Assembly (NCBI GenBank): GCA_902595845.1
Contig: CACJRN010000001.1
Location: 134,326 to 198,325, forward strand
Origin: an uncultured Gammaproteobacteria bacterium
GTDB taxonomy: Bacteria; Pseudomonadota; Gammaproteobacteria; Steroidobacterales; UBA11654
DNA: 64,000 nucleotides
Reading direction: 5' to 3'
The position numbers and the translations under genes were made by a program. Shown here one piece after another: positions 40,218-58,413 of this stretch; position 1 is the stretch's first letter; the number at the start of each line of letters is the position of its first letter. Under the pieces are notes generated by a model. The model had not been told where the DNA came from. It did not search any database and was given only the letters and a program-made list of their open reading frames with translations.

Positions 40218-40228
40218 TGTAATTCCCC

Positions 40229-41806
40229 TTATATCTTTTCATCAAAACCCAAATTACCTGGGTTAATTAAATTCTTTGGATCCATTTCTTTTTTAAGCAT
40301 CAAAAGAAGTTTTTTTGTGCTTTCTGTTCTGGTCTTTAAATATGGATAGTCTTTTCCAATCTGAAAATGAATTGCGCCATTGTTTCTTGCCATTTCCTCT
40401 AAGCGATCTTTTATTTCATGAACAAGCTTATAGCCCTCAGGATTTCGCTCAAAGGTTGGAATATTTTCCAAATCAAGCGGGTAGACCTTTTTATGATAAA
40501 TCGTTTGCTCATCTTGCCAGAGGAAGGTGGGCTCATAGAGAAAGGCATTACTGTCAATGAATGAAAACATCATGTTCATATAAACCCCATGTTTATTCAT
40601 TCGATCCTCATACTCTGCCATCAAGGATTGGTAATCTTGGTTATGCTTCAATACCCTGGAGAATGGTAAGACAGAATGAGTAGGTTTCCATAGCTCCCCA
40701 TTTGGTCCTAAAATGGGTGTCAGCTCCATAAATGGGTTTGCATGGAGGTATAGAGGTATGCTGTTCGCTACTTCTTTCCCGAATTTCTGAGCAACCTTTC
40801 TTACTTCAGCCAACTTGAGCTTGGCTTCTTTTGAATTGATGCCTTCTGTGGTGAAATGTCCAGAATATGCCGAACCTTTAAGAAATCCTCTGCCTGCCAG
40901 GCCCATTTTCATTAGTTGTGCCAGACCATCAAGAACATTTCTTGATGACTTCATAATGGATTGAGCTGCTGCAATGGTGCTGGCATTTTCCATTTCCATG
41001 ATTGCTGTTTTTTGTTTTCTTGGATCTAAGCCATGGTTATCTGAGACCAGACCGAGTTTAGAGATCTCTTTCATCGCATTGAATAGATGCTCAAAGTCCT
41101 CAAATCCAAATGAGCATGCAGCAAATCCCTCGGGATATTTTACAAGCTTTAAAGTAATTCTTGTTTTGACTCCTAGCGCGCCTGAATCTCCTAAGAATAA
41201 ACCACCAAGATCTGGTCCGTAGTGTCTGAAAAAACGTGACGATGCTTCGTCGCTTCCTTGAGATCCTGTTTCAATGACATCCGCGGTTCCAGTTATTACC
41301 TGTAGACTTGATAAGGAATCAGCTGAAACAGCATTATTGGTTCCATGACTGATGGCGTGGAATGACATTGATCCTGCAATGGTGGCGACTCTCCCTGAGA
41401 AAGGTCCCCAATGAGGCGTTCTCAATCCCAGGGGCTTCAATGTTTCATAGAGTTCAAGCCAAGTGACCCCAGGCTCAACTGTGACATACATGTCTTCCTC
41501 ATTGACTTCAATCTTCTTTAATCTCTGGCTATCAATGATAACCGTCTCTTTTCTAGCAGGCAGAAATGAACTTGTATAGGACGCACCGCCACCTCTTGTA
41601 GACACTGTAATTTCATTTTCAATACAGAGTTTTATCAGTGATATAAGTTCGTCAGCATTTCCAGGTCGAACAACTGCAATTGCCTGTTCATTGGCAGTTC
41701 CAAAAATATCCGTTGAATAAAAGTGAAGACTTTCTTGATCTTGGATAACATGTTCAGCACCAATTAGGCTGGAAATTTTTTGAATATTATTTTCTATAGA
41801 TGTCAT
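40229..41806 (-). CDS. FAD-linked oxidase (PCMH/GlcD-type FAD-binding domain)
   Basis: 525 aa. VVRPGNADELISLIKLC...VSTRGGGASYT FAD-binding N-domain and a large C-terminal cap domain. Confidence 0.78.
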   Translation of the reverse strand: MTSIENNIQKISSLIGAEHVIQDQESLHFYSTDIFGTANEQAIAVVRPGNADELISLIKLCIENEITVSTRGGGASYTSSFLPARKETVIIDSQRLKKIEVNEEDMYVTVEPGVTWLELYETLKPLGLRTPHWGPFSGRVATIAGSMSFHAISHGTNNAVSADSLSSLQVITGTADVIETGSQGSDEASSRFFRHYGPDLGGLFLGDSGALGVKTRITLKLVKYPEGFAACSFGFEDFEHLFNAMKEISKLGLVSDNHGLDPRKQKTAIMEMENASTIAAAQSIMKSSRNVLDGLAQLMKMGLAGRGFLKGSAYSGHFTTEGINSKEAKLKLAEVRKVAQKFGKEVANSIPLYLHANPFMELTPILGPNGELWKPTHSVLPFSRVLKHNQDYQSLMAEYEDRMNKHGVYMNMMFSFIDSNAFLYEPTFLWQDEQTIYHKKVYPLDLENIPTFERNPEGYKLVHEIKDRLEEMARNNGAIHFQIGKDYPYLKTRTESTKKLLLMLKKEMDPKNLINPGNLGFDEKI

Positions 41807-41895
41807 TTTTTAAAAAAGCCTTTTCTAACTTTTTGAGGATTTAGATTATATCCTTTGAGACCATCACATGTTAAATTATTTGGCGAAAAAGAATT

Positions 41896-42699
41896 ATGAA
41901 TATTTCATCAAGAAAAGGTTACATCGATAGTATTTTTGGTCAGCTTCATTTTCATGTCACTGGCGAGGGCAAACCATTAATTTTATGCCATCAATCGCCG
42001 AGTTCACTCGAAATGTTCACCAAAGCTTTTGAGCCTTTGGCAAGCTCAGGAATTCAGGTCATTGCAGTCGATACTCCCGGTTATGGGCAATCCGATGCTC
42101 CGAAGACTCAACCAAGCATCCATGATTATTCTATGTGTGTTTTGGATCTGATTGAATTTTTGAAGCTCGAAAAAGTATCTTTGCTTGGTCATCATACCGG
42201 AGCTTGTATCGTTGCTGAACTTTCAGTCATTGCTTCAGATAGAGTCGATAAGCTAATTCTCAATGGCCCTCCTGTTCTTACCCAAGAAGAGAAGAACAAT
42301 TTGATGAGCATGATTGAAAAAGCTCCAAAAATGAAACTCGAGGAAAACGGCTCTCATTTAACTGATTTATGGGAGAGGAGAAAGCTTTTTACTCCTGGAT
42401 GGAGCGACTTAGATGCAATGCACCGAGGAGTCATACAAATGCTGAGAGTGACTGGCGATGAAATACATGGTTTTAAGGCAGCATTTACTCAAGATCTTGA
42501 AAAAGTCTTATTGGCTATAAACGTGCCCACAATGATTCTTACTAATACGGGGGATGATATCTATTTTGCAGCAAAAAGAGCAGCATCTCTTAGGCCTGAT
42601 TTTAAATTTAAGGAGCTTTCAGATGGGACACACGATATTGTGGATGAGCAAACAGACAAATGGGTCAAATCCGTCACAGACTTTCTGCAGAATGATTAG
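41896..42699 (+). CDS. Alpha/beta hydrolase
   Basis: 267 aa. LCHQSP oxyanion region, GHHTGA nucleophile-elbow position, C-terminal GTHD. Confidence 0.7.
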   Translation: MNISSRKGYIDSIFGQLHFHVTGEGKPLILCHQSPSSLEMFTKAFEPLASSGIQVIAVDTPGYGQSDAPKTQPSIHDYSMCVLDLIEFLKLEKVSLLGHHTGACIVAELSVIASDRVDKLILNGPPVLTQEEKNNLMSMIEKAPKMKLEENGSHLTDLWERRKLFTPGWSDLDAMHRGVIQMLRVTGDEIHGFKAAFTQDLEKVLLAINVPTMILTNTGDDIYFAAKRAASLRPDFKFKELSDGTHDIVDEQTDKWVKSVTDFLQND

Positions 42700-44519: not shown

Positions 44520-45224
44520 ATGATTACATTTGGATATTCAGTAATAGCGGTGATCGCTTTTTCATGTTTTGTTTTTGGTGTAAGGGCATATATCAGCGAG
44601 CCAAATAAAATACTATTTTTAATCCTTATAAATACATCATTGCTTTGGTTTGATTCCTTTGTAACAGCGATTGGGCAATATACTGGAGAAGGCACTCTTT
44701 TGCTTGTCATGACATATATACGTTATGCAGCACACTGGCTCACTCTTCCGCTTCTTTTTATCGTCGCTGGAATGATTCTCAGAGCTGCTGACTTTAAATT
44801 TGCACAAAGTAAATATGTCATGGGACTCTTTTGTCTTATTGCTGTATTTTTCATAGTTTATGATTTTAGATACATGTTTATTTTAGATTTCTACCCAGTT
44901 TGTTATGCCGAAACTTTCAGATATGCAACACAAGTTCCGATTGGTCAGGAGTGCTCACCTGGAATGGCGGGAATGGGATATAAAGTTCTCCCTATAGCTC
45001 CAATATTACTGACTTTGATTTTACTGATGTCAGGAATAGCAATATGGATCAAACACAAATGGCCATGGCTTGCAGTGGGTTGTGCCGTAATGCTGTTAGC
45101 TGCTCAGCCAACTCCAATTGGCCCAATTCTAAGTAATGCTGGTGAGCCAATATTTATTTTTGCGCTCATGCTTGCTGCAATCAAGTTTGGCAGTAAGGTA
45201 AAAAAAGAAAATAGTCCTGCTTGA
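44520..45224 (+). CDS. Hypothetical polytopic membrane protein
   Basis: 234 aa, about 6-7 TM helices, no motif recognised. The antisense 93-aa ORF (44429-44710) is judged spurious. Confidence 0.5.
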   Translation: MITFGYSVIAVIAFSCFVFGVRAYISEPNKILFLILINTSLLWFDSFVTAIGQYTGEGTLLLVMTYIRYAAHWLTLPLLFIVAGMILRAADFKFAQSKYVMGLFCLIAVFFIVYDFRYMFILDFYPVCYAETFRYATQVPIGQECSPGMAGMGYKVLPIAPILLTLILLMSGIAIWIKHKWPWLAVGCAVMLLAAQPTPIGPILSNAGEPIFIFALMLAAIKFGSKVKKENSPA

Positions 45225-45232
45225 AAAAAATT

Positions 45233-46462
45233 TTAAAAATTAATGTCTCCATCGCTAGAGAGGGGGTAGATTGAGATAATCTCATCTTTCTTTACGGTCT
45301 CAATCCCCTCTGGGATTAATGCCCAGCAGTTTGCATCACGAAATGGTTTCACCTTGAAAGATTCCTGCCCAGACATGACTTCGGTATGAATTTGTCCACC
45401 ATCATCAACATGAGCTATGGCTTTAGCAAATAAGCAAAATTTTTCTGACTTCTTATAACTCTTTAAATTCTTGCTGGTAATGGGTTTTTCTAACTTTCTA
45501 CCTTGAGCAATTCTTATAGCTTGAGCAGCGAGGAATCTAAATCCAACTGCGACAGAGACTGGGTTACCGGGTAAGCCAAAGACAATTTGACCATTAGGAA
45601 ATTTTGCCATCAATACAGGCTTTCCAGGTCTGATCCAGAGTTTATGAAAAAGTATTTCTGCTCCCATTTCAGTTAGTGCTGCCGGAATGAAATCTGCTTT
45701 ACCTGCTGAGACACCACCACTCGTCAGAATGATATTTGCACCGCTATCCTTTAATTCTTGAATTTGATTAATGATGAGATTTATTTGATCTTCCGCATGC
45801 ACATTCATCGTGCATTCCAGACCCATTGATTGAACTGCAGATTCTAGAAATGGACCATTTGAGTTTGGAATAGATGATGATGAAGTTCGATTCAGCTCAT
45901 TACCTGTGGTGAGTATACCAATCAAAGGCTTTCTGAATGCTTTAATTGAACTGATATTATTCATTATCATTCCAATCTTATGATGGTCATTGATTAGCGA
46001 CCCCTTTGATAATATCAAGTCATCTTTTTGAAAATCTTCACCTGATTTTCTGACATTTGCATTTTTCTTAACTGGCTCATTTATGAGGAGGAATTTAGAA
46101 CCATCTTTCTCAATCAACTTGCCTTTTTCTACAGGCAAAACAGTATCCATATCATCTGGCATTTTGGCGCCAGTCATAATTTCATATACATCAAAATCTT
46201 TTATATTCGATGGAGGCTCGTCTCCAGCAAAAATTGAACCTTTTACTTGAAATTCAATATGATTATCTGAGCATGCTTTATCTGTGATGCTGCTTTTCAG
46301 GCAATATCCATCCATGGCTGAATTAGAAAATGATGGGACTGGGTGACTCGAGAAAATATCATCTGCGATTACTACATTCGCAGATCTTACATCCACCTCT
46401 TCTGTTCCAAAAGAGGAGACTGCTTTTTCTATGATTTGTAATGCTTCCGTGTAGTTTTTCAT
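45233..46462 (-). CDS. moeA: Molybdopterin molybdotransferase
   Basis: 409 aa. SFSNSAMDGY, TGNEL, TSGGVSAGKADF, RPGKP. Confidence 0.9.
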   Translation of the reverse strand: MKNYTEALQIIEKAVSSFGTEEVDVRSANVVIADDIFSSHPVPSFSNSAMDGYCLKSSITDKACSDNHIEFQVKGSIFAGDEPPSNIKDFDVYEIMTGAKMPDDMDTVLPVEKGKLIEKDGSKFLLINEPVKKNANVRKSGEDFQKDDLILSKGSLINDHHKIGMIMNNISSIKAFRKPLIGILTTGNELNRTSSSSIPNSNGPFLESAVQSMGLECTMNVHAEDQINLIINQIQELKDSGANIILTSGGVSAGKADFIPAALTEMGAEILFHKLWIRPGKPVLMAKFPNGQIVFGLPGNPVSVAVGFRFLAAQAIRIAQGRKLEKPITSKNLKSYKKSEKFCLFAKAIAHVDDGGQIHTEVMSGQESFKVKPFRDANCWALIPEGIETVKKDEIISIYPLSSDGDINF

Positions 46463-46566
46463 GGCTTTCTTCTGATCTGATACTAGTTCTAATTATGATG
46501 CAAAGAAATAAAAATTTTTGAAATTTAGGATAGAATGATGCTGTAAAAAACTAATATCTATTCGAA

Positions 46567-49308
46567 TTGAAGATAAATAGAAGAAATTTTTTAAAGGGTT
46601 CAGCGTCAACAGGTCTTTTGCTCCAATACTCCATGAGCACCCAAGCTATCGCGGATACCCCTTATCGCGGTACTGAAGATTTGTATCGTAGAAAATGGAC
46701 TTGGGACAAAGTGGTTAGAGGAACTCATGGCACCAACTGTGCGGGCACATGTGCATTCAATGTTTATATCAAAGATGGTGTAGTTTGGAGAGAGGAACAG
46801 CAAGGCCAGTATGAGCAACTTGGTGATGTCCCTGATTTTGGTCCAAGAGGTTGTCAAAAGGGATTGCGTCATCATAAATATATGTATGGCAAACAACGAA
46901 TACTATACCCCCTTAAAAGAGTTGGAGAGAGGGGAGAAGGCAAATGGGAAAGAATCAGTTGGGAGCAAGCAACAACAGAGATCGCTGATAAGTTCTTAGA
47001 TTATGCTACTGAGTACAATCCAGAATGTATCTCCTATGGAAGCGGAACTCAGATGTCGGTTAAACTTGCATCTTATGCTTCTTTGTTAAGATTAGGAAAC
47101 ATCACTGGGATCACTGTTCCAGAATTCTTTTCAGGCGTTGGCGATTTACCTACAGGTTCCTATATGACTTTGGGACAAGTATATACCGGGGATACATTTG
47201 CCTCTGTATATAAGTCAAAGTGTGTGATGGTTTGGATGAGCAATCCTGCTGCAACTAGAATTCCTGATGCACATTTCTTTTGGGAAGCAAAATACAATGG
47301 AACACAAGTGATTGCTGTTTCACCAGAATTCACACCAACTGCAATGCATTCAAGTCTTTGGCTCAATCCTAAACCAGGCACCGATGCAGCATTAGCTATG
47401 TCTATGGTTCAGGTCATCTTGAGAGAGAATCTTTATCAGGCAGACTATATAAAAGAACAGACAGACCTCCCTTTTCTTGTAAGAACTGATACGAAAGAAT
47501 TTCTAAGGAGAGAAGATTTGTCTCTCTATGGATTGCTTGCTGTCGCTGACAATGTCTATTACATGTGGGATGAATCAACCAACTCAGTGGTTCAAGCACC
47601 AGGAACAGGTCGAGCAGACAAACCATTTGGTAGAGATAGAAGAAAGTATGGAACACTTGAGCTGGGTGAAATCAAACCCAGTTTAGAGGGAAGATGGATT
47701 GTCGATACATTGGATGGCGAAGTAGAAGTAACCACCGTTTTTGAGTTGCTTAAAGAAGAATCAGAAAATTATAAACCAGAGAATGCATCAGAAATCACAG
47801 GCGTCAGTGCCAAGGTCATAGAGAAAACCGCAAAAATCTTTGCAGATGCAGATCCAGGGATGATCTACGCAGGTTACGCTTCATGTAAATGGCTTCATGG
47901 AGACCTCTTGCAAAGAGCCATGCTTTTACTTCTAGCCTTGACTGGAAGCACAGGAAAAGAAGGCGGAGGTCTTCAAATAGCAAATTCTCCGAATGCTAGG
48001 GGGTTGACACAGTTTGGCTTCTCAGATGTTGGTCCAGCTTTCAGGCTCATATCTTCTACAACCTGGGATTATGACCATGCTGATATGAAAGAGTTAAATC
48101 AAAAAATTTATGGCAATGATTTAGCAGAAAAATTTGATCGATATTACAAGAAGAGTATCGAAGAGGATTGGTTTCCTGACTACAGTAAAAATGGATGGAA
48201 AATGGGCTTTTTTGCAGGCAACAATGGTGCCAACTGGAGAGCGACTGGTAGCACTTGGAGAAAAACAGCATTTGAGGAGCTAGAGACAATCGTATCCCTT
48301 GCCCCAGATATGGGGGTGACTTCATTGTATTCAGATTATGTTTTACCCATAGCTCATCATTACGAGAGAAATGATCTAATGCTTCAATCAAGGGTTCCAT
48401 ATTTACAGGTCCTGAATGAAGCCGTGCCTCCTCTTGGTGAAGCAGTGGATGATTGGGAAGCAAACAGAAGGCTTGCTGAAGCAATATCAAGAAGAGCGAA
48501 AGAAAGGAATATTAAGCCAATTCAAGACGCCGTTGATGGAAGAACGGTTAGAAGGGATTACACCAAAACTTTGGAACTTTACACCATGGGAGGCAGGGTA
48601 AATAACTCAAAAGATGTTGCTCAGTTCATTATCAATGCAAGCCATGGCATACCAAAGATCAGCTTTGAGGAACTCTCGCAAAAAGGAATCGTTAAAGTTG
48701 AAGGTGTTGAAAGCACAATGTGGGAAAAAGATGAATCCCCTTATCACAATGAAATTGTAAAGAGCGTGAAGAAAAAATTACCTTATGAAACCTTCACGGG
48801 AAGACAGCAATTTTATATCGATCATGAATGGTTTATCGAATTTGGCGAAACCTTACCGACTTTCAAAGAGCCATTGAAAATTGATGAATTCCCATTGAGG
48901 ATGATGATGGGGCATGCCAGACATGGCATACATAGTACTTGGCGAGATGATTCATTTCTTCTGAGTTTGCAACGAGGTGAGCCTGATATTTATGTGAATC
49001 CTGATGACGCTACAAATAGGGGTGTTCAAGATGGAGATATGATCAGGGTCTATAATACAGCCGGTGAATTTTTCGCAATGGCACATGTGAGTTCAGGTAT
49101 CCAGCCAGGGATGTTATTCATGTACCATGGTTGGGATCCAAAAATGTTCAAAGGTGATAAGAATTTCAGTGAAGTCATTCCAACAGGCGGCCTAATTAAG
49201 CCAACTTCTATGGCAGGAGATTATGGCCATCTTGGCTATCAACCTTTGGCTTTTGCTCCAAATCAAACATACAAGGATTTTACCTGCGATTTTGAGAAGT
49301 CAGCGTAG
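46567..49308 (+). CDS. Tat-exported molybdopterin oxidoreductase catalytic subunit, Nar-type (type II DMSO reductase family)
   Basis: 913 aa with a TTG start. Twin-arginine signal MKINRRNFLKG...AIA|D. FS0 motif H54-x3-C58-x3-C62...C96 (HGTNCAGTC...PRGCQKG). VGDLPTGS...NPAATRIPDAHFF aligns with NarG CDLPPAS...NVPQTRTPDAHFF, which carries the Asp Mo ligand. Confidence 0.9.
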   Translation: MKINRRNFLKGSASTGLLLQYSMSTQAIADTPYRGTEDLYRRKWTWDKVVRGTHGTNCAGTCAFNVYIKDGVVWREEQQGQYEQLGDVPDFGPRGCQKGLRHHKYMYGKQRILYPLKRVGERGEGKWERISWEQATTEIADKFLDYATEYNPECISYGSGTQMSVKLASYASLLRLGNITGITVPEFFSGVGDLPTGSYMTLGQVYTGDTFASVYKSKCVMVWMSNPAATRIPDAHFFWEAKYNGTQVIAVSPEFTPTAMHSSLWLNPKPGTDAALAMSMVQVILRENLYQADYIKEQTDLPFLVRTDTKEFLRREDLSLYGLLAVADNVYYMWDESTNSVVQAPGTGRADKPFGRDRRKYGTLELGEIKPSLEGRWIVDTLDGEVEVTTVFELLKEESENYKPENASEITGVSAKVIEKTAKIFADADPGMIYAGYASCKWLHGDLLQRAMLLLLALTGSTGKEGGGLQIANSPNARGLTQFGFSDVGPAFRLISSTTWDYDHADMKELNQKIYGNDLAEKFDRYYKKSIEEDWFPDYSKNGWKMGFFAGNNGANWRATGSTWRKTAFEELETIVSLAPDMGVTSLYSDYVLPIAHHYERNDLMLQSRVPYLQVLNEAVPPLGEAVDDWEANRRLAEAISRRAKERNIKPIQDAVDGRTVRRDYTKTLELYTMGGRVNNSKDVAQFIINASHGIPKISFEELSQKGIVKVEGVESTMWEKDESPYHNEIVKSVKKKLPYETFTGRQQFYIDHEWFIEFGETLPTFKEPLKIDEFPLRMMMGHARHGIHSTWRDDSFLLSLQRGEPDIYVNPDDATNRGVQDGDMIRVYNTAGEFFAMAHVSSGIQPGMLFMYHGWDPKMFKGDKNFSEVIPTGGLIKPTSMAGDYGHLGYQPLAFAPNQTYKDFTCDFEKSA

Positions 49309-49314
49309 CTTATT

Positions 49315-49959
49315 ATGGAAAGAGTAACGAATGAAGTGCAAAGACAATCGGAGACTACAGCACTGCCTCGTGCCACAATATACTCACTATTTTCACAGCT
49401 GCTAAGCTCACCTCATGAATTAAAACCACTGAGCTTAACTTCAGATATATCTTTCGAAGGTTTGCCTTTTGATTTCAATGTTAGTGAAATGATCGATAAC
49501 TATATCAAATATGATCATGATGAACTCCGCCTGAGATACAGTGGTTTATTTGAGGTCGGAGATGATGGACCTCCTGTACCCATAAGAGAGGATCTTTTTT
49601 TGGCACAACCAGCAAAACTAAGAGAAGACATAGTAAGATTCTACGATTATTTTGGCTATCAATTGGATGAGGAGTTTCAATGGCAAATGGATCATTTATC
49701 CATCGAGTTAGAGTTCATGCATTTTCTGATTATCGGTGAGCTTCGTTCAGATAACGATAAGCTTTCATTCCAATTAGGCCAGTATGATTTTCTAGAAAAA
49801 CATTTGATAAATTGGGTTCCACCATTTCTAAAGAAATTATCAACTCTAGATGAGAGTGATATCTACACAAAAATTGTTATAGAATTAGAGGAGTTCCTTT
49901 TAAAAGACCAATTTTGGCAAAAGGAAACCATTTCACATAAAGATGTAGCTGGAGGTTAA
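49315..49959 (+). CDS. TorD/NarJ/DmsD-family redox-enzyme maturation chaperone
   Basis: 214 aa all-helical protein sitting between the alpha and beta genes (gaps of 6 and 3 nt). Has the YSGLFEVGDDGPPVPIRED pattern similar to TorD-family cores. Confidence 0.62.
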   Translation: MERVTNEVQRQSETTALPRATIYSLFSQLLSSPHELKPLSLTSDISFEGLPFDFNVSEMIDNYIKYDHDELRLRYSGLFEVGDDGPPVPIREDLFLAQPAKLREDIVRFYDYFGYQLDEEFQWQMDHLSIELEFMHFLIIGELRSDNDKLSFQLGQYDFLEKHLINWVPPFLKKLSTLDESDIYTKIVIELEEFLLKDQFWQKETISHKDVAGG

Positions 49960-49962
49960 GGT

Positions 49963-50952
49963 ATGGGTCAGGTTGCAATGGTGATAGATTTAAACAAGTG
50001 TATTGGTTGTCAAACCTGCACAACTGCTTGTAAATCTCTTTGGACAGATGAACCTGGCCAAGAATATATGCTATGGAATAATGTTGAGACAAAGCCTGGT
50101 CCTGGCTATCCAAGATATTGGGAAGATGGCGGCGGCGGTTTCGATGATGAAGGAAACCTCAAACGCGATGGATTAATGCCTAAAAAAGAAGATCATGGAG
50201 AAGAAGTCCCACTTAATCATGACGAAGTTTATTTCAAAGGCGTTGAAGTTAGGCTTCAACAAGAAAAGCCAATGACCAAAGGCGCCAATTGGGATGAAGA
50301 TACCAGCTCTGGAGATTATCCAAATAATTATCATTTCTACTTGCCCAGAATGTGTAATCATTGCACCAAGCCTGCATGTTTAGAAGCATGTCCTGTGAGA
50401 GCCATTTATAAAAGAGAAGAGGACGGTGTTGTACTGATTGACGATGACAAATGTCAAGGTATCAGAGAATGCAATAAAGCATGTCCATACGATAAGATTT
50501 ATTTTAATTACATCACGGGTAAGTCACAAAAATGTATATTCTGCTTCCCAAGACTAGAAGAGGGCGTTGCACCAGCATGCGCAAGACAGTGTCCAGGTAG
50601 ATTAAGGTTTGTTGGGTTTTTGGAAGATGAGGATGGGCCAATCAATGAATTAGTTTATCAATGGAAGGTCGCCTTACCGCTTCATCCAGAATATGGTACA
50701 GATCCAAATGTATTTTATGTGCCACCAATGTTGCCACCAAATTTTGATGAAGATGGAGATTTCTCTGATGATCCAAGGGTTCCAACAGAATACTTAAGAA
50801 GTCTATTTGGGGATGCCGTGGATGAAGCACTGATAACGCTTCAGTTTGAGATGGAGAAAAAACAAGAAGGAAAGGAATCCAGATTAATGGATATTCTGAT
50901 TGCCAAAGAATGGAAGTCTTTATTTAGCATTCCTGACGTCAAAATTTACTAA
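49963..50952 (+). CDS. Iron-sulfur (beta) subunit of Nar-type molybdoenzyme, 3x[4Fe-4S] + [3Fe-4S]
   Basis: 329 aa. Cluster motifs CIGCQTCTTAC, CNHCTKPACLEACP, CQGIRECNKACP (second Cys replaced, as in the NarH 3Fe-4S site) and CIFCFPRLEEGVAPACARQCP. Confidence 0.9.
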   Translation: MGQVAMVIDLNKCIGCQTCTTACKSLWTDEPGQEYMLWNNVETKPGPGYPRYWEDGGGGFDDEGNLKRDGLMPKKEDHGEEVPLNHDEVYFKGVEVRLQQEKPMTKGANWDEDTSSGDYPNNYHFYLPRMCNHCTKPACLEACPVRAIYKREEDGVVLIDDDKCQGIRECNKACPYDKIYFNYITGKSQKCIFCFPRLEEGVAPACARQCPGRLRFVGFLEDEDGPINELVYQWKVALPLHPEYGTDPNVFYVPPMLPPNFDEDGDFSDDPRVPTEYLRSLFGDAVDEALITLQFEMEKKQEGKESRLMDILIAKEWKSLFSIPDVKIY

Positions 50953-50969
50953 TTCATTACAATAAGGCG

Positions 50970-52928
50970 ATGACGATGCAATTATCCAACAGTCGCATTT
51001 TTTTAATCATGACATCACTGGTCCTATCATCTGTGATGGCCAGCCTTGACTCCAGTTTCACGCCAATCGCTATTCCAGATATGATCGATAAGCTTGATTC
51101 AAGCACGAGTGAAATTGTTTGGGTTGCACTTGGATATCTCATTGCAGCAAGCGGCCCGATGCTCTTGGCTGCAAAAATGGCTGATGGGATCGGCCATGCC
51201 CGTTTTTTTCAAATTGGGACATTAATATATAGTTTAGCAATGATCGCGTGTGCTTGGGCACCAGATGCTAATACGCTGATTATTATTCGGTTTGTTCAAG
51301 GTTTTGGTATGGCATTATTTCTGCCTACAACCTTCGCTATTGCTACTGCAATGTATGGCCCTGAAAGAAGAGGTAGTGCATTAGGAATTCTTCAGGCAGC
51401 CAATGCAGTCGGTTTTGTCATGGGACCAATTTTCGCAGGATGGTTACTCGATGCATATGACTGGACAGCTATTTTTTGGTCTAGAATTCCATTCGCCATA
51501 CTTGCGATAGTATTGGCTTTTCTCGCATTAGGATTCAAGCAGCCATTTCAATTTTCTGAACGTCAGAAATCTTATGATTATTCTGGCGCAGTATTTTTAA
51601 CATTGGCATTGTATGGAATTTTATATGGTTGCAATAAACTTCCTGTAGAAGACAATCATTTAGAACCAATGGTATGGATTATTTTCCTTTCAGGTTTTGT
51701 TTTTTTTGCACTTTTTATTAAGCAGGAGAAAAAACATCCTGATCCATTGATTGACTTATCACTGTTCTCAAATAACAACGAATTCACAAAAGCCTCTATT
51801 GCATTTACATCGGTTTTTGCAAGTTTCCCAGTGTATCTCTTTATCTTACCAATCATCATGATCAATGGTCTTGAGCTAAAAGCATGGGATGCGGGATTGG
51901 CATTGGGAGCAGCTGCTCTTGCTACCTTATTGATCAGTCCTGTGGCTGGTAATTTATCAGACCGTATTGGCCCAGAAAAACTTTGTATGAGTGGAGCACT
52001 TCTTACAGTGTTTGGTTACATGCTTCTTTTCCTGGTTAATTCAGATTCAGGAGCTTTAGAGATCATTCCAGCGATGATTTTTATTGGTGGTGGGACAGGT
52101 CTATTCTTCTCTCCAAATAATAATTTAATGCTATCAAGTGCTCCACCTGAGAGAGCAGGTATGGTTTCTGGTTTATTCGGTGTATACAGGCAATCAGGCT
52201 ATGCATTGGGATTTGCGATTACAGCCAGCTTATTTACTGCCGTTCAGAATTGGTTTGATGTCAATTGGGCATATGACTCACTTAATGCAACAACTGTCGA
52301 ATCGGCAGATACAATCACTCAGCTCTATAATCAAGGCAGCCAATGGTCACCAGAGGTTCTGGTCTTTATTTTGCATATTGGTATTTTGCTCTGCTCAAGT
52401 ATATTGATCATTACTTTTGTGAATTCAATCCCAAAAGTGAAGCTCATGTTTTCAAAACAGATGACCACAGCGCTGATGGCAGTCGTTGTTTCAATCATTT
52501 CAATGGCTTCATATAGCTTGAATGCTCCTGGAGTTATTGACAGTCTTCAAATAAATGAGATCAATCGACCTGTTGTTTCTGTGCAAGCATTTGGTATGTC
52601 TTCAAGAGAGTATGAGATTCAAGATCAAACGAATTTTAGAATCATAAATGCCATGAATGATGAACCATTTGCCAATGAAAAATATGAATTAAGGTGTGGT
52701 TTTTGTCACGGAGCAGATCTAGATGGCATTGAAGGACTGGGAGTTACACTCAAGAATTCAGACTTTCTGAAGAGCATGACAACAGACGAAATTATAGATT
52801 TTTTGAAAGTAGGCAGGATGCCGGATGCCGAAGATACTATTTCTGGGGGCGTGATGCCAGGATTCAACTGGCTTGAAACATCTGAGCTTGAAGAAATTGC
52901 CAATTTTATAAAGATTAACAATGAATGA
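50970..52928 (+). CDS. Fusion protein: 14-TM MFS (DHA2/EmrB-like) permease + 15th TM helix + C-terminal monoheme class I cytochrome c domain
   Basis: 652 aa with 14 hydrophobic helices in the usual MFS pattern. An extra helix TTALMAVVVSIISMASYSL spans residues 499-517 and is followed by a 58-aa linker. Then comes CGFCH (residues 576-580, nt 52695-52709) and a distal Met in GGVMPGF. Confidence 0.85.
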   Translation: MTMQLSNSRIFLIMTSLVLSSVMASLDSSFTPIAIPDMIDKLDSSTSEIVWVALGYLIAASGPMLLAAKMADGIGHARFFQIGTLIYSLAMIACAWAPDANTLIIIRFVQGFGMALFLPTTFAIATAMYGPERRGSALGILQAANAVGFVMGPIFAGWLLDAYDWTAIFWSRIPFAILAIVLAFLALGFKQPFQFSERQKSYDYSGAVFLTLALYGILYGCNKLPVEDNHLEPMVWIIFLSGFVFFALFIKQEKKHPDPLIDLSLFSNNNEFTKASIAFTSVFASFPVYLFILPIIMINGLELKAWDAGLALGAAALATLLISPVAGNLSDRIGPEKLCMSGALLTVFGYMLLFLVNSDSGALEIIPAMIFIGGGTGLFFSPNNNLMLSSAPPERAGMVSGLFGVYRQSGYALGFAITASLFTAVQNWFDVNWAYDSLNATTVESADTITQLYNQGSQWSPEVLVFILHIGILLCSSILIITFVNSIPKVKLMFSKQMTTALMAVVVSIISMASYSLNAPGVIDSLQINEINRPVVSVQAFGMSSREYEIQDQTNFRIINAMNDEPFANEKYELRCGFCHGADLDGIEGLGVTLKNSDFLKSMTTDEIIDFLKVGRMPDAEDTISGGVMPGFNWLETSELEEIANFIKINNE

Positions 52929-54237
52929 TTTGGTAAATGCAAAGCAACAAGACTCCAAGGCTGCATGGTATGCAGTCTTTGTCCTCTTGCTCGCTTATGT
53001 TCTTTCCTTCGTGGATAGAATCATTCTCAGTCTATTGGTCACACCAATTAAAGCTGACCTAGGCACAACTGATGCACAAATGGGACTACTCATGGGGTTT
53101 GCATTTGCCATATTTTATACAGTAGCAGGCATACCGATTGCTAAATATTCAGATGTGAAGAGCAGAAGAATGATAATCGCCATTGGGGTATTTTTGTGGA
53201 GCATAATGACTGCTGTTTGTGGATTGGCTAGAAGTTTTTTCCAACTTTTCCTAGCAAGAGTAGGCGTTGGAGTGGGAGAGGCTGCACTCACACCTGCAGC
53301 TTACTCTATGATTTCCGATTATTTCAGCGAAGATAAGTTAGGCAGAGCAATGGCAGTATATAAATCTGGTGCGATGTTTGGCGGAGGCTTGGCTTTTATC
53401 ATAGGCGGTGCAGTGGTTGGATATGTGGTCAATTCCGATTCCATTATCCTTCCAATATTAGGAGAAATGAAGCCATGGCAAATGGCATTCATCATTGTCG
53501 GTCTTCCAGGCGTTTTAATCGGTCTTTTGATGTTGACAGTAAAGGAGCCAAGAAGGACAGGAATAGCTGATACGCTTGATAAAAAAGTATCCATATCTGA
53601 TGCCATTAAATATATGCAAAAACGTTGGAGGATTTATTTGTTTATCTTCTTGGGTTTCGCTTTTATGGGGGCTCCCATTAGTTCAGCATTGACTTGGATA
53701 CCTGTTTACCTTCAGAGAATACATGAGATGAGTATTCCCGAGAGTGGAAGAACCCTTGGTATTATTATTTTCTTCTTATCGACAAGTGGAGTCATTGTCA
53801 GTGGTTGGTTGATTGATACTTTTAAGAAAAAAGGTTTTCAGGATGGTTATTTTAAGGTTGCTTTAATGATTTGTATTGTCACCATACCCATCTCCTATTT
53901 TGTCATGAACGATGAAAGTCTAGAAAAAACCCTCTGGTGGTTACACCCATTTGTATTCGTTGCAAGTATGCCGCTCGCTATTTCTGCAACTGTGTTACAA
54001 ATTGTTACGCCTAATCAATTAAGGGCTCAAGTCTCAGCAGTATATATGCTTTTTTTGAATCTGATCACAGCACTCATAGTGACCACAGGCATTGGTTTTA
54101 TTACTGATTTCTGGTTTAAGAATGAAATGGCTCTAGGTCAATCCATCACTATGGTTAATCTCTTATCAATGTTTCTGGCTTTTCTATGCTTATACATTGC
54201 AATGTCAAACTTTAATAAAGAATTCACAAAGTCCTAA
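52921..54237 (+). CDS. MFS transporter (12 TM)
   Basis: 438 aa. FVDRIILSLL, then G-x-x-x-D-x-x-x-R-R-like motif A (KYSDVKSRRMII). 8-nt overlap with the preceding gene. Confidence 0.8.
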   Translation: MNDLVNAKQQDSKAAWYAVFVLLLAYVLSFVDRIILSLLVTPIKADLGTTDAQMGLLMGFAFAIFYTVAGIPIAKYSDVKSRRMIIAIGVFLWSIMTAVCGLARSFFQLFLARVGVGVGEAALTPAAYSMISDYFSEDKLGRAMAVYKSGAMFGGGLAFIIGGAVVGYVVNSDSIILPILGEMKPWQMAFIIVGLPGVLIGLLMLTVKEPRRTGIADTLDKKVSISDAIKYMQKRWRIYLFIFLGFAFMGAPISSALTWIPVYLQRIHEMSIPESGRTLGIIIFFLSTSGVIVSGWLIDTFKKKGFQDGYFKVALMICIVTIPISYFVMNDESLEKTLWWLHPFVFVASMPLAISATVLQIVTPNQLRAQVSAVYMLFLNLITALIVTTGIGFITDFWFKNEMALGQSITMVNLLSMFLAFLCLYIAMSNFNKEFTKS

Positions 54238-54312
54238 AAAGTCGGTTAGTATAAAAGTTCGCCTTGTAGAAAATAAACAGGGTTAAATAGACAATTTTTA
54301 AGGGGAGTTTTT

Positions 54313-54945
54313 ATGGTTGATCAGTCAACAGAAGATAATTACGCTGGTGTCTGGGATAGTGGATTAGGGTTTGGTGAAAAATCGGCTTTAATTGTTATTG
54401 ATTTACTTCAGGGTTATACCACTGAAGGCTCAGCACTCTATGCACCTGGTGTAGTTGAGTGTGTAAAGGAAGTGCCAGATCTACTCGGATTGGCAAGAGA
54501 AAAAAATGTGCCTGTGATTCACACCAGGGTTCTATACACAAAACCAAATTACGAGGATGGAGGTGTTTGGATTAAGAAAGCGCCAGTGCTTCTTGATTTG
54601 GTCGAAGGCCATCCTTATGCAGAGTTTTGCGAAGGAGTTGAGCCTCAAGAAGGAGAGGTCGTTATAGTGAAGCAGTATGCAAGTGCATTCTTTGGTACCT
54701 CATTGGTGGCTACATTAAATGGTCTTGGCGTTGATACACTCATCATTACTGGATGCACAACATCTGGATGTATCCGTGCCACTGCCGTTGATACAGTTCA
54801 GCATGGTTTCAGACCTATCTGCGTAAGAGAGTGTATCGGTGATAGAGCTGAAGGCCCACATGAAGCAAATCTTTTTGATATCAATGCCAAATATGGTGAT
54901 GTCATCAGCAAAGATGTTGCTATGGATTATTTAAACAGTTTATAA
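54313..54945 (+). CDS. Isochorismatase-family cysteine hydrolase (N-carbamoylsarcosine amidase-like)
   Basis: 210 aa. ALIVIDLLQGY (Asp), VKQYASAF (Lys) and ITGCTTSGCIRATAVD (nucleophile Cys), the family catalytic triad pattern. Confidence 0.8.
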   Translation: MVDQSTEDNYAGVWDSGLGFGEKSALIVIDLLQGYTTEGSALYAPGVVECVKEVPDLLGLAREKNVPVIHTRVLYTKPNYEDGGVWIKKAPVLLDLVEGHPYAEFCEGVEPQEGEVVIVKQYASAFFGTSLVATLNGLGVDTLIITGCTTSGCIRATAVDTVQHGFRPICVRECIGDRAEGPHEANLFDINAKYGDVISKDVAMDYLNSL

Positions 54946-54964
54946 AAATTTAGGGGAAGGAATT

Positions 54965-55888
54965 ATGAGTGATTTAACACAATGCAGGCACTATGATTAT
55001 GTGCCAATAATTGACAGGGAACCATTCAAGCTACCTGATGGCGCTAGAGTCGCAATACTGCCATATATCAACATTGAACATTTTCCAGCAGCCATTCCGG
55101 GCACATCATTGATACCTGGGACAGCGGCTTTCTCTCCTGATCCATTGAATTATGGATGGAGGGATTATGGAAACAGAGTTGGTTTATGGAGAATGATGGA
55201 ATTGATGGATAAGCTCGGCATGAGAGGCACTGTGTGTTTGAATGCAGAAATTATTAGAGAGTATCCAAGAATCATCGAAGAATCTCTGGCAAGAGACTGG
55301 GCATTCATAGGGCATGGAATCAATAATGCCCCTGCAAACTTTATAGGTAACGCGCCAGATGGGGAAGGTGGTCATACGCCACTTCCTGAGGAGAAAGAGA
55401 GAGAAATCATCAGCACAGTTTGCCAGACAATGGAAGAGGCATTGGGTAAGAAAACTAAAGGTTGGTTAAGCCCATTCCTAACTCATACAGATAATACTCC
55501 AAAAATATTGGAAGAAAATGGAGTTGAGTATCTATGTGACTATACAGCAGATGATCATCCTTTTAGGTTTAATACACCACAGAATAATCTCATTGCTGTT
55601 CCATACACTGTAGAACTCAATGATATTCCTGCATTTTTGGGTCACTCAGGAGTCGGAGTTTCATCAGAGGCATTTGGAGACATGATTGTTGATCAATTTG
55701 ATGTCCTATATGAGGAGGGCGCAACCAATGCAAGATGTATGCCTATTTGCTTGCATACTTTTCATGTTGGGCAGCCAAATAAATTCAAGCATCTTAAAAG
55801 AGCTTTTGAATATATTGCCAGCCATGATGATGTCATTCTTTCAACAGGAGATGACATTAATGATTGGTATCGAGAACAATACATGTAA
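54965..55888 (+). CDS. Polysaccharide-deacetylase-fold hydrolase (divergent, PuuE-size)
   Basis: 307 aa. The size and the pattern (ARVAILPYINIEHF..., IGHGINN, LCDYTADDHPF) resemble the divergent NodB/PuuE-type deacetylase family. Assigned by eye only. Confidence 0.55.
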   Translation: MSDLTQCRHYDYVPIIDREPFKLPDGARVAILPYINIEHFPAAIPGTSLIPGTAAFSPDPLNYGWRDYGNRVGLWRMMELMDKLGMRGTVCLNAEIIREYPRIIEESLARDWAFIGHGINNAPANFIGNAPDGEGGHTPLPEEKEREIISTVCQTMEEALGKKTKGWLSPFLTHTDNTPKILEENGVEYLCDYTADDHPFRFNTPQNNLIAVPYTVELNDIPAFLGHSGVGVSSEAFGDMIVDQFDVLYEEGATNARCMPICLHTFHVGQPNKFKHLKRAFEYIASHDDVILSTGDDINDWYREQYM

Positions 55889-55921
55889 AGCATCGGCTAT
55901 TTAGCCAAGCTTAGTTATAAT

Positions 55922-55952
55922 AATGGGCAGTATTACTGCCCATTATTTTTTT
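55922..55952 (+). terminator. Rho-independent terminator
   Basis: AATGGGCAGT (55922-55931) and ACTGCCCATT (55935-55944) form a perfect 10-bp stem, followed by A-TTTTTTT. Confidence 0.88.
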
Positions 55953-57212
55953 ATGACTAAGGATTATCAAAACATCAAAGCATTCTTGATTTTTATTCTG
56001 CTAATGCAGACTGAATTATTTGCAGCAAAAATTCCAGAACCGGGACCCAGTGTGATGAGACTCCCAGTTTTGATTGAAAATGAGCAGTCAGAACTGATCG
56101 TTGCAAATGGATTCAAGGTTGAAACACTTATCAGTGGTCTTGACTCTCCAAGATGGCCGATCGTGCTAACAAATGGAAACATACTGATTTCAGGATCAAA
56201 GACTGAGGCATTGCCTAATATGCCTGAGGAAACCATTCGTTTGCTCACCAGCATGAATATATTTGGTAAATCTCCGAATACTATTGTTGAAATCAAAATG
56301 GATCAAAACCCTCCTAAAGTTGAGAATCTGATTGAGGGCCTCAATCAACCATTTGGGATCTTATATGCTAACGAAAATCTTTATGTAGCTAATACAGATT
56401 CCATAATTAAGTTTCCGTTTAAGGGCTTCACTGTTTCAGGCAAAGCAGAGAAGATTATTGATTTACCATTTGGTCCACCCAATAACCATTGGACTAGGAA
56501 CATCATCCTGAATGAAGAGGGAAATAAGATACTAGTCACGGTTGGTTCGGGTACCAATGTGAATTCAGAAGGTGTAAATGAAAATGAGAGAGCTGCAATT
56601 TGGGAAATCAATCTGGATGGCAGTCAAAAAAGAATATATGCATCTGGCCTAAGAAACCCTGTTGGATTGGATTTTTATAAAGAAAATGGAAGTTTATGGA
56701 CAACTGTCAATGAGCGGGATGGGATAGGAGAGTTTACGCCCCCTGATTATCTGACTGAAGTCACAGAAGGTGCTGATTATGGGTGGCCATACGTCTACTT
56801 TAAGGACCATGCAGATCCAACGCATTTGAAGCTTAATCCAAAAAAAGTTCAAGAAGCAATGGAGAACTCATTGATGCCTGATCTTCCGCTTGATGCACAC
56901 TCTGTCCCATTGGGCTTATTGTTTCATAGCGGAAAAAATATCAACACAAAGTATAAGAATGGTGCTTTTGTTGTTCGACGTGGCGGAGTATCGACATCAA
57001 AGCTCACTGGTTATGATGTACTTTTTATTCCATTTAAGGATGGTAAGCCCACCGGAGCTATAGAGACCTTTTTGTCCGGCTTTATAGCCAGCGAGGAAAG
57101 AGGAGAAATATATGGAAGGCCTGTTGGTATTGCAGAAGCATTAAATGGAGAAATCATCATCACGGATGATGTTGGTGGTAGGCTTTTGTTAATCAGCCCA
57201 TTGTCTGATTAG
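55953..57212 (+). CDS. PQQ-dependent sugar (glucose/sorbosone) dehydrogenase-family beta-propeller protein
   Basis: 419 aa from the ATG at 55953; the ORF-track start at 55923 lies inside the terminator stem. Signal peptide, then GLRNPVGLDF...ERDG...PPDYL...GADYGWPY. Confidence 0.72.
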   Translation: MTKDYQNIKAFLIFILLMQTELFAAKIPEPGPSVMRLPVLIENEQSELIVANGFKVETLISGLDSPRWPIVLTNGNILISGSKTEALPNMPEETIRLLTSMNIFGKSPNTIVEIKMDQNPPKVENLIEGLNQPFGILYANENLYVANTDSIIKFPFKGFTVSGKAEKIIDLPFGPPNNHWTRNIILNEEGNKILVTVGSGTNVNSEGVNENERAAIWEINLDGSQKRIYASGLRNPVGLDFYKENGSLWTTVNERDGIGEFTPPDYLTEVTEGADYGWPYVYFKDHADPTHLKLNPKKVQEAMENSLMPDLPLDAHSVPLGLLFHSGKNINTKYKNGAFVVRRGGVSTSKLTGYDVLFIPFKDGKPTGAIETFLSGFIASEERGEIYGRPVGIAEALNGEIIITDDVGGRLLLISPLSD

Positions 57213-57213
57213 T

Positions 57214-58413
57214 TTATTTCTTTAATGCATTCAGAATTAAGTTTGGCAGTTTTGAATCATCCCATTCAGGCGAGTTATCACCGGTTCTGAGTATTACAAG
57301 AGACTCAGAGGGAATAATGTACATCCTTTGTTTTCCAATCCCATCCATAAAGAAAAGGTCGTCGGCAACATACGGTTCGCTGTGGAAGTTTGCATACATG
57401 GTTAGTCTTGCATCATAAGCTCTTCTTTCCTGATATTCATTGCCAAGCCAAATTTGCATTCCATAATTTCTATTTGAATCAGAAGGCGTAATCATCTGAT
57501 TTACCCAGTTTTTAGGTAACACCTCTCTATCCATAAAATACCCTTTATTCATGAGCATCTGACCGATACGAATCATGTCACTGATTGAAGCCCACATACA
57601 GCAGTCTGTATGGACCATTCCATTGGGTCGATCAACAAAGAAGAATGCATCCCGACTTCCAAGTGGAGACCATATTTTTTCAGAGAAATATTCGCTGTAT
57701 CTCTTTCCAGAAGTTCTTTGAATCAGAATGCCAAGTATTTGGCTGTTGTAGTTATTATGCGAGAAAACAGTGCCTGGCTTGATTTCTGGATCCATATTTA
57801 GATTTGCACTTACAATGTCTGTTCCATAAGCTCTTTGGATTCGATCTGAGAATGGAGAGTAATCAAAGGATTCTTTGAGCCCTCCTGACATGTGTAGTAA
57901 ATGCTTTATAGTGATGTTCGTTTTATCACCATTTCTCCATTCTTCAATGTAATTTGCAACAGGATCATCTATTGAATCTATAAACCCATCTTCAATTAAG
58001 TGTCCCACCAATAGTGCATTCATGGTTTTTGTGAAAGAGTGAAGGCCAAAAAGTGAGTCTGGCTCGGTCTCTTGCCAGTAAGACTCAAAAACAATTTTAC
58101 CTTTATGTTGAATTACAAGACTTTTGCTGCCATGTATTTCTGCATATTGTCTAGCCTCTTCAAATACCTCCAAAGCTATCTCGCTTTGTTCTGGGCTTAT
58201 TTTTTCAAGAGGGGATAGAAAATTTCCCTGCGTTCTTTCGAGCGGTTGATACCAAGAAAAGTCTGGATCCAATGGGTTACCCATTAGAGCAGTTGTCCAT
58301 CTTTCCCAAAACAGCCCAAAGAGCCCAAAACTTGCTGAACCAATGATTGAGCTGATGACGAAAATCACGACCACAATAGAGATCAGTATGAATTTGAAAA
58401 ATTGTCTAATCAT
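57214..58413 (-). CDS. Membrane-anchored beta-lactamase-fold serine hydrolase (paralog 2)
   Basis: 399 aa. N-terminal TM helix, S-x-x-K motif SFTK, HLLHMSGGL. Confidence 0.8.
   Translation of the reverse strand: MIRQFFKFILISIVVVIFVISSIIGSASFGLFGLFWERWTTALMGNPLDPDFSWYQPLERTQGNFLSPLEKISPEQSEIALEVFEEARQYAEIHGSKSLVIQHKGKIVFESYWQETEPDSLFGLHSFTKTMNALLVGHLIEDGFIDSIDDPVANYIEEWRNGDKTNITIKHLLHMSGGLKESFDYSPFSDRIQRAYGTDIVSANLNMDPEIKPGTVFSHNNYNSQILGILIQRTSGKRYSEYFSEKIWSPLGSRDAFFFVDRPNGMVHTDCCMWASISDMIRIGQMLMNKGYFMDREVLPKNWVNQMITPSDSNRNYGMQIWLGNEYQERRAYDARLTMYANFHSEPYVADDLFFMDGIGKQRMYIIPSESLVILRTGDNSPEWDDSKLPNLILNALKK

Follow-up and report, generated by a model that had tools for sequence, protein, structure and literature searches.

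The DNA analyzed here, called the window below, is a stretch of 64,000 nucleotides (nt) from an uncultured Gammaproteobacteria bacterium (GenBank assembly GCA_902595845.1, contig CACJRN010000001.1), and the system under study is a molybdoenzyme operon at positions 46567 to 52928. The operon belongs to a real and widespread, uncharacterized family of periplasmic molybdenum enzymes of marine and soil bacteria. Its product is probably a periplasmic alpha-beta oxidoreductase of type II with a molybdenum-bis(pyranopterin guanine dinucleotide) (Mo-bisPGD) cofactor, in which a monoheme cytochrome c takes the place of the heme-b gamma subunit of related enzymes. The literature searched yielded no account of this enzyme family or of fusions between major facilitator superfamily (MFS) transporters and cytochrome c. 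The four genes and the parts of their products are as follows, with lengths in amino acids (aa).

46567-49308, forward strand: alpha (catalytic) subunit of 913 aa, with a TTG start and the N terminus MKINRRNFLKG, recognized by domains, motifs, and alignments
46567-46653, forward strand: twin-arginine translocation (Tat) signal of the alpha subunit, residues 1 to 29
49315-49959, forward strand: NarJ/TorD-family assembly chaperone of 214 aa, 6 nt after the alpha gene and thus between alpha and beta
49963-50952, forward strand: beta subunit of 329 aa without a signal peptide, 3 nt after the chaperone gene
50970-52928, forward strand: MFS-cytochrome c fusion gene with a 652-aa product, 17 nt after the beta gene
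50970-52421, forward strand: MFS portion of the fusion, residues 1 to 484, of the DHA2/EmrB type with 14 transmembrane (TM) helices (TIGR00711; AlphaFold2 helices)
52449-52517, forward strand: 15th TM helix of the fusion, residues 494 to 516 (hydropathy profile and AlphaFold2)
52668-52925, forward strand: predicted monoheme class I cytochrome c domain, residues 567 to 652, with CGFCH at 52695-52709 and the axial Met in GGVMPGF

According to the open reading frame (ORF) list of the window, the coordinates and spacers of the operon are exactly those first described, and the Tat signal, the FS0 motif, the aspartate segment, the chaperone, the 4+4+3+4 cysteine pattern of beta, the gene that fuses an MFS transporter to a cytochrome c, and a divergent moeA gene were all found where the initial annotation had placed them. 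Its assignment of the operon to a periplasmic, nitrate reductase (Nar)-type molybdoenzyme also held, based on the Tat signal, FS0, Asp193, and the domain matches. These features support a predicted alpha subunit that is exported by Tat and belongs to an Asp-ligated type II (Nar-type) Mo-bisPGD enzyme. The Pfam domains Molybdopterin (PF00384; E value, 6e-38) and Molydop_binding (PF01568; E value, 1e-17) identify the MopB fold. The FS0 residues H54-x3-C58-x3-C62...C96 are invariant in 12 family members and aligned with those of NarG, PcrA, and ClrA, and Asp193 (in VGDLPTGS), which is invariant in the family alignment, aligns with the molybdenum ligands D222 of NarG and D170 of PcrA. The match with TIGR03479 (DMSO_red_II_alp) is full length (E value, 2e-267), yet its score of 889.9 bits lies below the curated cutoff of 984.75, which indicates that the alpha subunit is a close relative outside this curated subfamily. 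The score with the NarG-type model TIGR01580 is 347 bits against a cutoff of 1084. The ethylbenzene dehydrogenase equivalogs also score under their cutoffs, with 424 of 2000 bits for EbdA (NF042978), 408 of 740 bits for EbdB, and 77 of 360 bits for EbdD.

The chaperone matches PF02613 (E value, 1.4e-14) with 54.8 bits, above the cutoff of 22.2, and TIGR03482 with 94.5 bits, below the cutoff of 152.3. The beta subunit scores 512.3 bits with the type II beta model TIGR03478, above the cutoff of 480.7. Its cysteines form four groups of 4+4+3+4, at residues 13/16/19/23, 131/134/139/143, 164/170/174, and 191/194/206/210. In the third group, C164QGIRE-C170-NKA-C174 (CQGIRECNKAC), the second Cys is missing.

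The initial annotation had seen no gamma-like ORF in the 64 kb, and Pfam, phmmer, and a hidden Markov model (HMM) built from two sequences likewise found none. Pfam scans of approximately 40 plausible ORFs of the window gave no match with EB_dh (PF09459), and the remaining housekeeping ORFs at 1 to 28 kb, only some of them Pfam scanned, were judged from their translations. A total of 22,739 six-frame ORF fragments from the window and 167 related loci, the latter with flanks of 7 to 10 kb on either side and the rest of each genome outside this scope, contained no gamma subunit detectable by phmmer or HMM, so the gamma-free state extends to the relatives. The queries were ClrC of Ideonella dechloratans and an "ethylbenzene dehydrogenase-related" protein of Haloferax mediterranei, both taken from annotated plasmids, and the HMM was built from both. 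The search had power since the two control gammas detect each other at an E value of 1e-37. The precomputed Pfam matches for the called genes of four loci (L001, L002, L004, and L088) also include no EB_dh, and a Halieaceae relative from the outgroup, which is 38% identical, carries a normal EB_dh gene.

One ORF upstream of the operon was considered as a possible membrane anchor.

44520-45224, forward strand: 234-aa membrane protein, tested as a NarI-like anchor

NarI of Escherichia coli finds no similar ORF at an E value of ≤1e-3. H72 is the sole invariant His of the 234-aa protein, H179 is 89% conserved, and the protein occurs only in the marine gammaproteobacterial lineage. The possibility, raised at the outset, that it is a NarI-like anchor was rejected.

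The product of the gene that follows beta combines a transporter with a heme domain. It scores 239.5 bits with TIGR00711, above the cutoff of 230.2, and has a DHA2 (EmrB/QacA) MFS core. The cytochrome domain matches PF00034 and PF13442 weakly (Cytochrom_C, 19.2 bits, below the gathering score of 21.3), and homologues of the fusion carry precomputed matches with PF00034 or PF13442. The operon encodes a single CxxCH motif, the CGFCH that begins at residue 576 of the fusion, and residues C576, C579, H580, M629, and P630 do not vary among 30 homologues. The best PDB match of the domain is 2zoo, a copper nitrite reductase with a fused cytochrome c domain, and it is weak (E value, 0.007). In the AlphaFold2 model (mean predicted local distance difference test score, 80.6), the 14 DHA2 helices and the helix at residues 494 to 516 are followed by a linker at residues 525 to 566, which is modeled with low confidence, and a helical domain at residues 567 to 652. 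The heme domain would thus lie on the periplasmic side, because the odd number of helices places the C terminus opposite the cytoplasmic N terminus. The periplasm is where c-type cytochromes mature and where a Tat-exported alpha-beta pair would sit. In public databases the fusion homologues (P0312 to P0431) are named "MFS transporter" or "EmrB/QacA drug resistance transporter," and the heme domain is not mentioned.

In three related loci (L002, L017, and L020) the gene directly after beta encodes a free cytochrome c of 108 to 129 aa with a Sec signal. The free and fused cytochromes share the motifs CxxCHG...GVEGLGV...FLKVGRMP...MPGF. Given that an orthologous free cytochrome c is encoded next to beta in these loci, the constant fourth partner of the system is the cytochrome rather than the MFS transporter, and the MFS fusion is one way in which the conserved cytochrome is delivered.

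Relatives of the alpha subunit number in the thousands in the databases, and many marine clusters contain hundreds of member sequences each; the cluster represented by a protein identical to the window alpha (P0001) has 458. At least 80 species-level genomes (one genome per species) carry alpha relatives, all of which are at least 55% identical, and the closest among the matches listed is from the marine gammaproteobacterial single-cell genome AG-365-L08 (98% identity). Clustering of the sequence library at 50% identity reduces the family to a single representative, and the next representative is only 42% identical. A neighbor-joining tree of 53 sequences and 876 columns included PcrA (rebuilt from a PDB alignment), ClrA, NarG of Haloferax and E. 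coli, and approximately 30 representatives of the 50% clusters, with the true DdhA, SerA, EbdA, S25dA, CmdA, and NxrA outside its sampling. The alpha family formed one clade with 100% bootstrap support, outside the PcrA/pNarG group and the ClrA group, so that nesting of the alpha subunit in a characterized clade of this tree, which would have spoken against a separate lineage, was rejected. Over the 876 trimmed columns, PcrA and Haloferax NarG each share 38% identity with the alpha subunit, ClrA shares 36%, and E. coli NarG shares 32%. The nearest outgroup representatives, P0121 and P0124, join the family weakly, with 31% support, and the deep branches have 31 to 49% support. The names of the nearest outgroup clusters are generic or KO-derived labels only.

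Two outgroup loci differ in content. P0124 (L171:7001-16694) is encoded in an alpha-beta pair and has no Tat signal; downstream lie genes for a ParA-like ATPase, a fusion of SnoaL and a coenzyme A (CoA) ligase, an enoyl-CoA hydratase, and a molybdenum enzyme of the xanthine oxidase family, and the locus looks like a cytoplasmic catabolic cluster. A marine Halieaceae-type contig (L172:7001-12288) has the genes for alpha, an EB_dh gamma, beta, and the chaperone in this order, with four luciferase-like monooxygenase genes upstream.

Two clades are found within the family. Members of clade 1, with alpha subunits at least 64% identical to that of the window, have the order alpha-chaperone-beta followed by the MFS-cytochrome c fusion, and their hosts are Gammaproteobacteria, Alphaproteobacteria, Marinimicrobia, a Polyangiaceae metagenome-assembled genome, and Steroidobacteraceae. 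The alpha genes of clade 2 (55 to 60% identical products) stand alone or in alpha-beta pairs in varied contexts. In a tally of all loci pooled, including metagenome contigs searched from the fusion protein, the gene orders were distributed as follows.

Complete order alpha-chaperone-beta-MFS-cytochrome c: 69 loci, in several phyla
Order consistent, cut by the contig end: approximately 20 loci
Free cytochrome c after beta: 3 loci (L002, L017, and L020)
Beta missing: 6 loci (L021, L031, and L143 to L146)
Fusion preceded by a 220-aa membrane protein, no molybdenum enzyme: 4 loci (L089, L090, L140, and L150)

The synteny of alpha, chaperone, beta, and fusion, whose conservation had been put forward as a check, is thus borne out by the 69 complete loci. 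Five of the variants without beta have the order alpha-chaperone-fusion and one (L031) has alpha-fusion; they are mostly alphaproteobacterial or have fusions that are approximately 48% identical. In these loci, either beta is encoded elsewhere or alpha passes electrons to the cytochrome directly. The clade 2 sister group (L004 and L035 to L084; e.g., L004:5909-12766) has no chaperone gene, and the twin-arginine signal is present in all of its members. Many clade 2 alpha genes are preceded by a set of DUF4437-cupin, Amidohydro_2, AMP-binding (CoA ligase), and DSBA-like genes. In nonmarine loci, the conserved neighbors are MarR, VIT-family, MobB, and cyclopropane-fatty-acid genes, which gave no clue to the substrate.

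A further membrane protein recurs in these loci. In the four loci without a molybdenum enzyme, a polytopic membrane protein of approximately 220 aa is translationally coupled to the fusion (L089:7329-7991, L090:7345-8004, L140, and L150). It has the conserved motif RFxHxxLFxYWxGxDxGVF and no Pfam or NCBIfam match. Its gene recurs approximately 5 kb upstream of the alpha gene in more than 20 clade 2 loci, frequently in the form of a divergent pair. This protein is a possible further partner of the system, in a redox or membrane role.

The following mechanism is proposed for the enzyme. By homology, the NarJ/TorD-type chaperone would hold alpha until the cofactor has been inserted, and the folded alpha-beta pair would then be exported through Tat on the twin-arginine signal of alpha. 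The motifs predict an internal wire consisting of the Asp-ligated molybdenum, FS0, three [4Fe-4S] clusters, and, at its end in beta, a [3Fe-4S] cluster. As linkage and topology suggest, electrons would pass between this last cluster and the monoheme class I cytochrome c, which would sit in the slot of the heme-b EB_dh gamma subunit of Ddh, Ser, Clr, and Ebd. The cytochrome is fused through the 15th helix and the flexible linker to the presumably periplasmic end of the 14-TM DHA2 transporter, so the redox partner would be tethered to the membrane beside a transporter, and the tethered heme c would presumably deliver electrons to the respiratory chain. The direction of catalysis leans slightly toward oxidation, in which case the enzyme would be a dehydrogenase or hydroxylase of the substrate:cytochrome c type and would supply an aerobic respiratory chain. 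This direction is favored because the hosts appear to come largely from oxic surface ocean, lakes, and soils, because neither a quinol dehydrogenase nor a chlorite dismutase is linked to the operon (no gene of the NapC/NirT type and no chlorite dismutase gene was found among the scanned ORFs of the window or in the examined loci), and because cytochrome c is the sole linked acceptor.

The same complex working as a reductase is a less probable but serious alternative. The bc1 complex would then supply the electrons, which would pass over the tethered cytochrome c and the alpha-beta pair to a periplasmic oxyanion or N- or S-oxide, such as chlorate, selenate, iodate-like species, or dimethyl sulfoxide, in respiration or detoxification, and the DHA2 transporter would export or exchange the substrate or product. 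The closest characterized alpha subunits (PcrA, pNarG, and ClrA) are indeed those of reductases, c-type cytochromes feed Clr and Pcr (PMC5845722), DHA2 transporters are typically exporters, and a Crp-family regulator gene lies upstream in one related locus (L001). However, the missing NapC/NirT-type and chlorite dismutase genes and the occurrence of surface-ocean, lake, and soil bacteria among many of the hosts argue against a reductase, as do the absent substrate-site motifs of Nar and Pcr and the absent Trp of the PcrA gate. Where Nar, pNar, and Pcr have the segment FYDWY(C/S/G)D before the Asp ligand, the family has F(Y/F)SGVGD (FFSGVGD in the window alpha), and in the alignment the segment HY(V/I)GQ(E/W)K of Nar and Pcr is replaced as well. 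The aromatic gate of PcrA, which we take to be Phe164, Tyr165, and Trp461 (reportedly described by Youngblut et al. in 2016), is represented in the window alpha by F187 at the first position and F188 at the second, where Tyr is the family consensus, and Trp461 has no counterpart. These replaced active-site segments, the absence of Trp461, and the absence of a NarI-like ORF and of cld in the scanned ORFs argue against the functions of Nar, Nxr, and Pcr for the enzyme.

The transcription unit of the substrate:cytochrome c oxidoreductase considered most probable here may be longer than four genes. The neighboring features are as follows.

45233-46462, reverse strand: moeA (molybdopterin molybdotransferase), divergent from the operon, with MoeA_N, MoCF_biosynth, and MoeA_C domains (NF007960; E value, 9e-73)
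46463-46566, no strand: divergent intergenic gap of 104 nt between moeA and alpha, presumed promoter region
52921-54237, forward strand: second MFS transporter of 438 aa, its gene sharing 8 nt with the 3' end of the fusion gene
54313-54945, forward strand: isochorismatase-family hydrolase (PF00857; E value, 2e-34; weak NCBIfam matches with BiuH and RutB), 75 nt after the second MFS gene
54965-55888, forward strand: PuuE-like hydrolase with the polysaccharide deacetylase fold (PF01522), 19 nt after the isochorismatase-family gene
55919-55957, forward strand: terminator-like hairpin with a 13-bp stem and then a T run, directly 3' of the PuuE-like gene and the strongest such site in 45000-58500

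The operon probably extends past the fusion gene because of the 8-nt overlap with the second MFS gene and the short gaps to the hydrolase genes, which are followed by the hairpin. The isochorismatase-family gene is probably cotranscribed with the molybdoenzyme genes, and the PuuE-like gene is probably the last of the unit, which would end at the hairpin at 55919-55957. The second MFS gene is kept downstream in the marine lineage, where the synteny of the isochorismatase-family gene is also conserved, and a similar MFS gene follows the free cytochrome gene in the three loci that have one. The score of the PuuE-like protein with TIGR03212 (allantoinase PuuE) is 118 bits, below the cutoff. The hairpin overlaps the listed ATG (position 55923) of an ORF for a 429-aa GSDH-like protein, and the real start of that gene is therefore probably further downstream. 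At the other end, a promoter scan placed no promoter-like site in the gap at 46463-46566 (35 sites in the scanned region against 39.5 expected from shuffles), so the promoter role of the gap is presumed from the divergent arrangement. In clade 1, moeA is adjacent to the alpha locus in 12 of the 32 genome loci, and mobA or mobB is adjacent in others.

The genes downstream hint at a substrate. As the second MFS, isochorismatase-like, and PuuE-like genes are apparently cotranscribed, a small organic nitrogen compound might be oxidized in the periplasm and its product imported and hydrolyzed; dimethyl sulfide (DMS) or an inorganic substrate is also possible. The isochorismatase- and PuuE-like pair also lies near clade 2 alpha genes in L004, L035, L071, and L072. 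Hydrolase-type genes flank the operon on both sides (38748-42699 and 54313-55888); they are of the cyclic-amide or ureide type, all below equivalog cutoffs, and the upstream flank encodes an allantoinase/hydantoinase-like protein (489 aa) and a FAD_binding_4 oxidase (525 aa), with an alpha/beta hydrolase also in the flanking set. A TonB-dependent receptor is encoded at 36177-38699, and TonB receptors occur in 10 of the 32 clade 1 loci. A bolder reading, which seems unlikely at present, is that the enzyme is an abundant but unrecognized dehydrogenase in the periplasm of aerobic bacteria from the sea and from soil. It would oxidize DMS or a dissolved organic nitrogen compound and pass the electrons to the respiratory chain, and its acceptor cytochrome would form one protein with the transporter for uptake of the product ("redox-coupled uptake"). 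In that case, many of the "ddhA" genes counted in ocean metagenomes would belong to this enzyme.

Several points weigh against the interpretation of the operon as an oxidizing alpha-beta enzyme with a cytochrome in the place of gamma. The link between beta and the cytochrome is one that we infer, as is the direction of catalysis, which leans on host ecology. The six loci without beta are hard to square with an obligatory wire from alpha through beta to the cytochrome unless beta is encoded elsewhere. MFS-cytochrome c paralogues, approximately 50% identical, occur without a molybdenum enzyme in L089, L090, L140, and L150, so the fusion is not exclusive to the molybdenum enzyme and has other partners. 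The amidohydrolase neighbors are found mainly in one marine lineage and the four clade 2 loci, which makes the substrate hint weak. Finally, a gamma gene could sit beyond the 64 kb of the window or beyond the flanks of 7 to 10 kb of the related loci.

The same paralogues, coupled to the 220-aa membrane protein, raise the alternative that the fusion is not an electron partner at all and instead is a transporter with a redox or heme function of its own, linked to the enzyme as a mover of substrate or product. This is very unlikely, since an orthologous free cytochrome c follows beta where the MFS gene is separate, the compact arrangement of four genes is retained in at least 69 loci, and no other redox partner is encoded nearby. 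It is scarcely probable that a heme-b gamma is encoded elsewhere in the genome and that the linked cytochrome c, soluble or tethered, is only a downstream carrier: this would resemble Ideonella, where clrA-B-D-C is followed by a c-type cytochrome gene, and the search covered the window and locus flanks rather than whole genomes, but all characterized systems retrieved have an in-operon gamma, none was found in the window or around the 167 loci with a sensitive control, and the cytochrome gene fills the slot right after beta.

The family is a large one without characterization in the literature searched, and individual marine clusters comprise hundreds of member sequences. In public annotation the alpha subunit appears either under a generic type II name or as "dimethylsulfide dehydrogenase/...", with KO-derived JGI labels. 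A survey of the marine sulfur cycle counts DdhA by an HMM at an E value of ≤1e-50 (PMC8520302), a threshold that would be expected to admit the alpha family, and knowledge of the substrate would correct marine DdhA inventories. In addition, a transporter-tethered monoheme cytochrome c would be a third respiratory link for type II molybdoenzymes, besides heme-b gamma subunits and the soluble multiheme PcrC.

Among known systems, the perchlorate reductase PcrAB(C)D of Azospira suillum (4ydd/5e7o) is the best solved-structure match to the alpha subunit (E value, 1e-174). It shares with the window operon a Tat-exported alpha-beta pair, the Asp ligand, FS0, a four-cluster beta, a c-type cytochrome, and the lack of a heme-b gamma. 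The initial annotation had described all characterized periplasmic type II enzymes as alpha-beta-gamma enzymes with a heme-b gamma, which is wrong for perchlorate reductase (PMC5845722, PMC3656443). PcrC is a c-type cytochrome with four hemes, which passes electrons through PcrB to PcrA (PMC5845722), and Arcobacter sp. CAB has pcrABD without pcrC and a monoheme cytochrome c gene in the perchlorate island instead (PMC3656443). For the replacement of a heme-b gamma by a c-type cytochrome, one of the two closest characterized relatives thus offers a precedent. The claim of a distinct variant with cytochrome c in the place of gamma is upheld insofar as the lineage is conserved and gamma free, and its uniqueness was overstated. 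The window operon differs from perchlorate reductase, with the order A-D-B rather than ABCD or ABD, a cytochrome fused to a transporter whereas PcrC is a soluble tetraheme protein and the Pcr partner is not transporter fused, no cld nearby, FYDWYGD replaced, Trp461 absent, only 38% identity, and PcrA not nested with the family.

Chlorate reductase ClrABDC of Ideonella dechloratans is also a periplasmic type II enzyme with its own chaperone, a TIGR03478-type beta, and a linked c-type cytochrome gene. However, ClrA is 36% identical, and the order is A-B-D-C, with a heme-b EB_dh gamma and then the c-type cytochrome gene. SerABC and DdhABC are systems related to ClrABDC. EbdABC, together with the related anaerobic hydroxylases S25dA and CmdA, represents periplasmic type II enzymes that act on organic substrates, and 2ivf is the second-best structural relative (E value, 2e-120). 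EbdABC hands electrons on to cytochrome c, and its heme-b gamma and its order ABCD are both absent from the window operon. The haloarchaeal pNarGH is Tat exported, like the alpha subunit, and 38% identical, but its cluster includes an EB_dh-type gamma together with genes for a Rieske protein and a cytochrome b, the order being G-H-gamma-J (narG-narH-gamma-narJ in Haloferax mediterranei), and the enzyme retains FYDWYSD and HYVGQEK, both of which the window alpha lacks. The copper nitrite reductase 2zoo has a class I cytochrome c fused to a redox partner, but the partner is the enzyme itself, not a transporter, and the similarity is weak. The nitrite oxidoreductase (NXR) of Nitrotoga belongs to a different lineage and is approximately 1170 aa long.

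Gene order is a weak criterion in this comparison, because relatives show A-B-D-C, G-H-gamma-J, and A-gamma-B-D; the last, in an uncharacterized Halieaceae relative, contradicts the initial view of ABDC and ABCD as fixed orders. Compared with all of these systems, what is new here is a separate and very large lineage with a monoheme cytochrome as its constant in-operon partner, the fact that this cytochrome is often fused to a transporter, and a chaperone gene that lies between alpha and beta.

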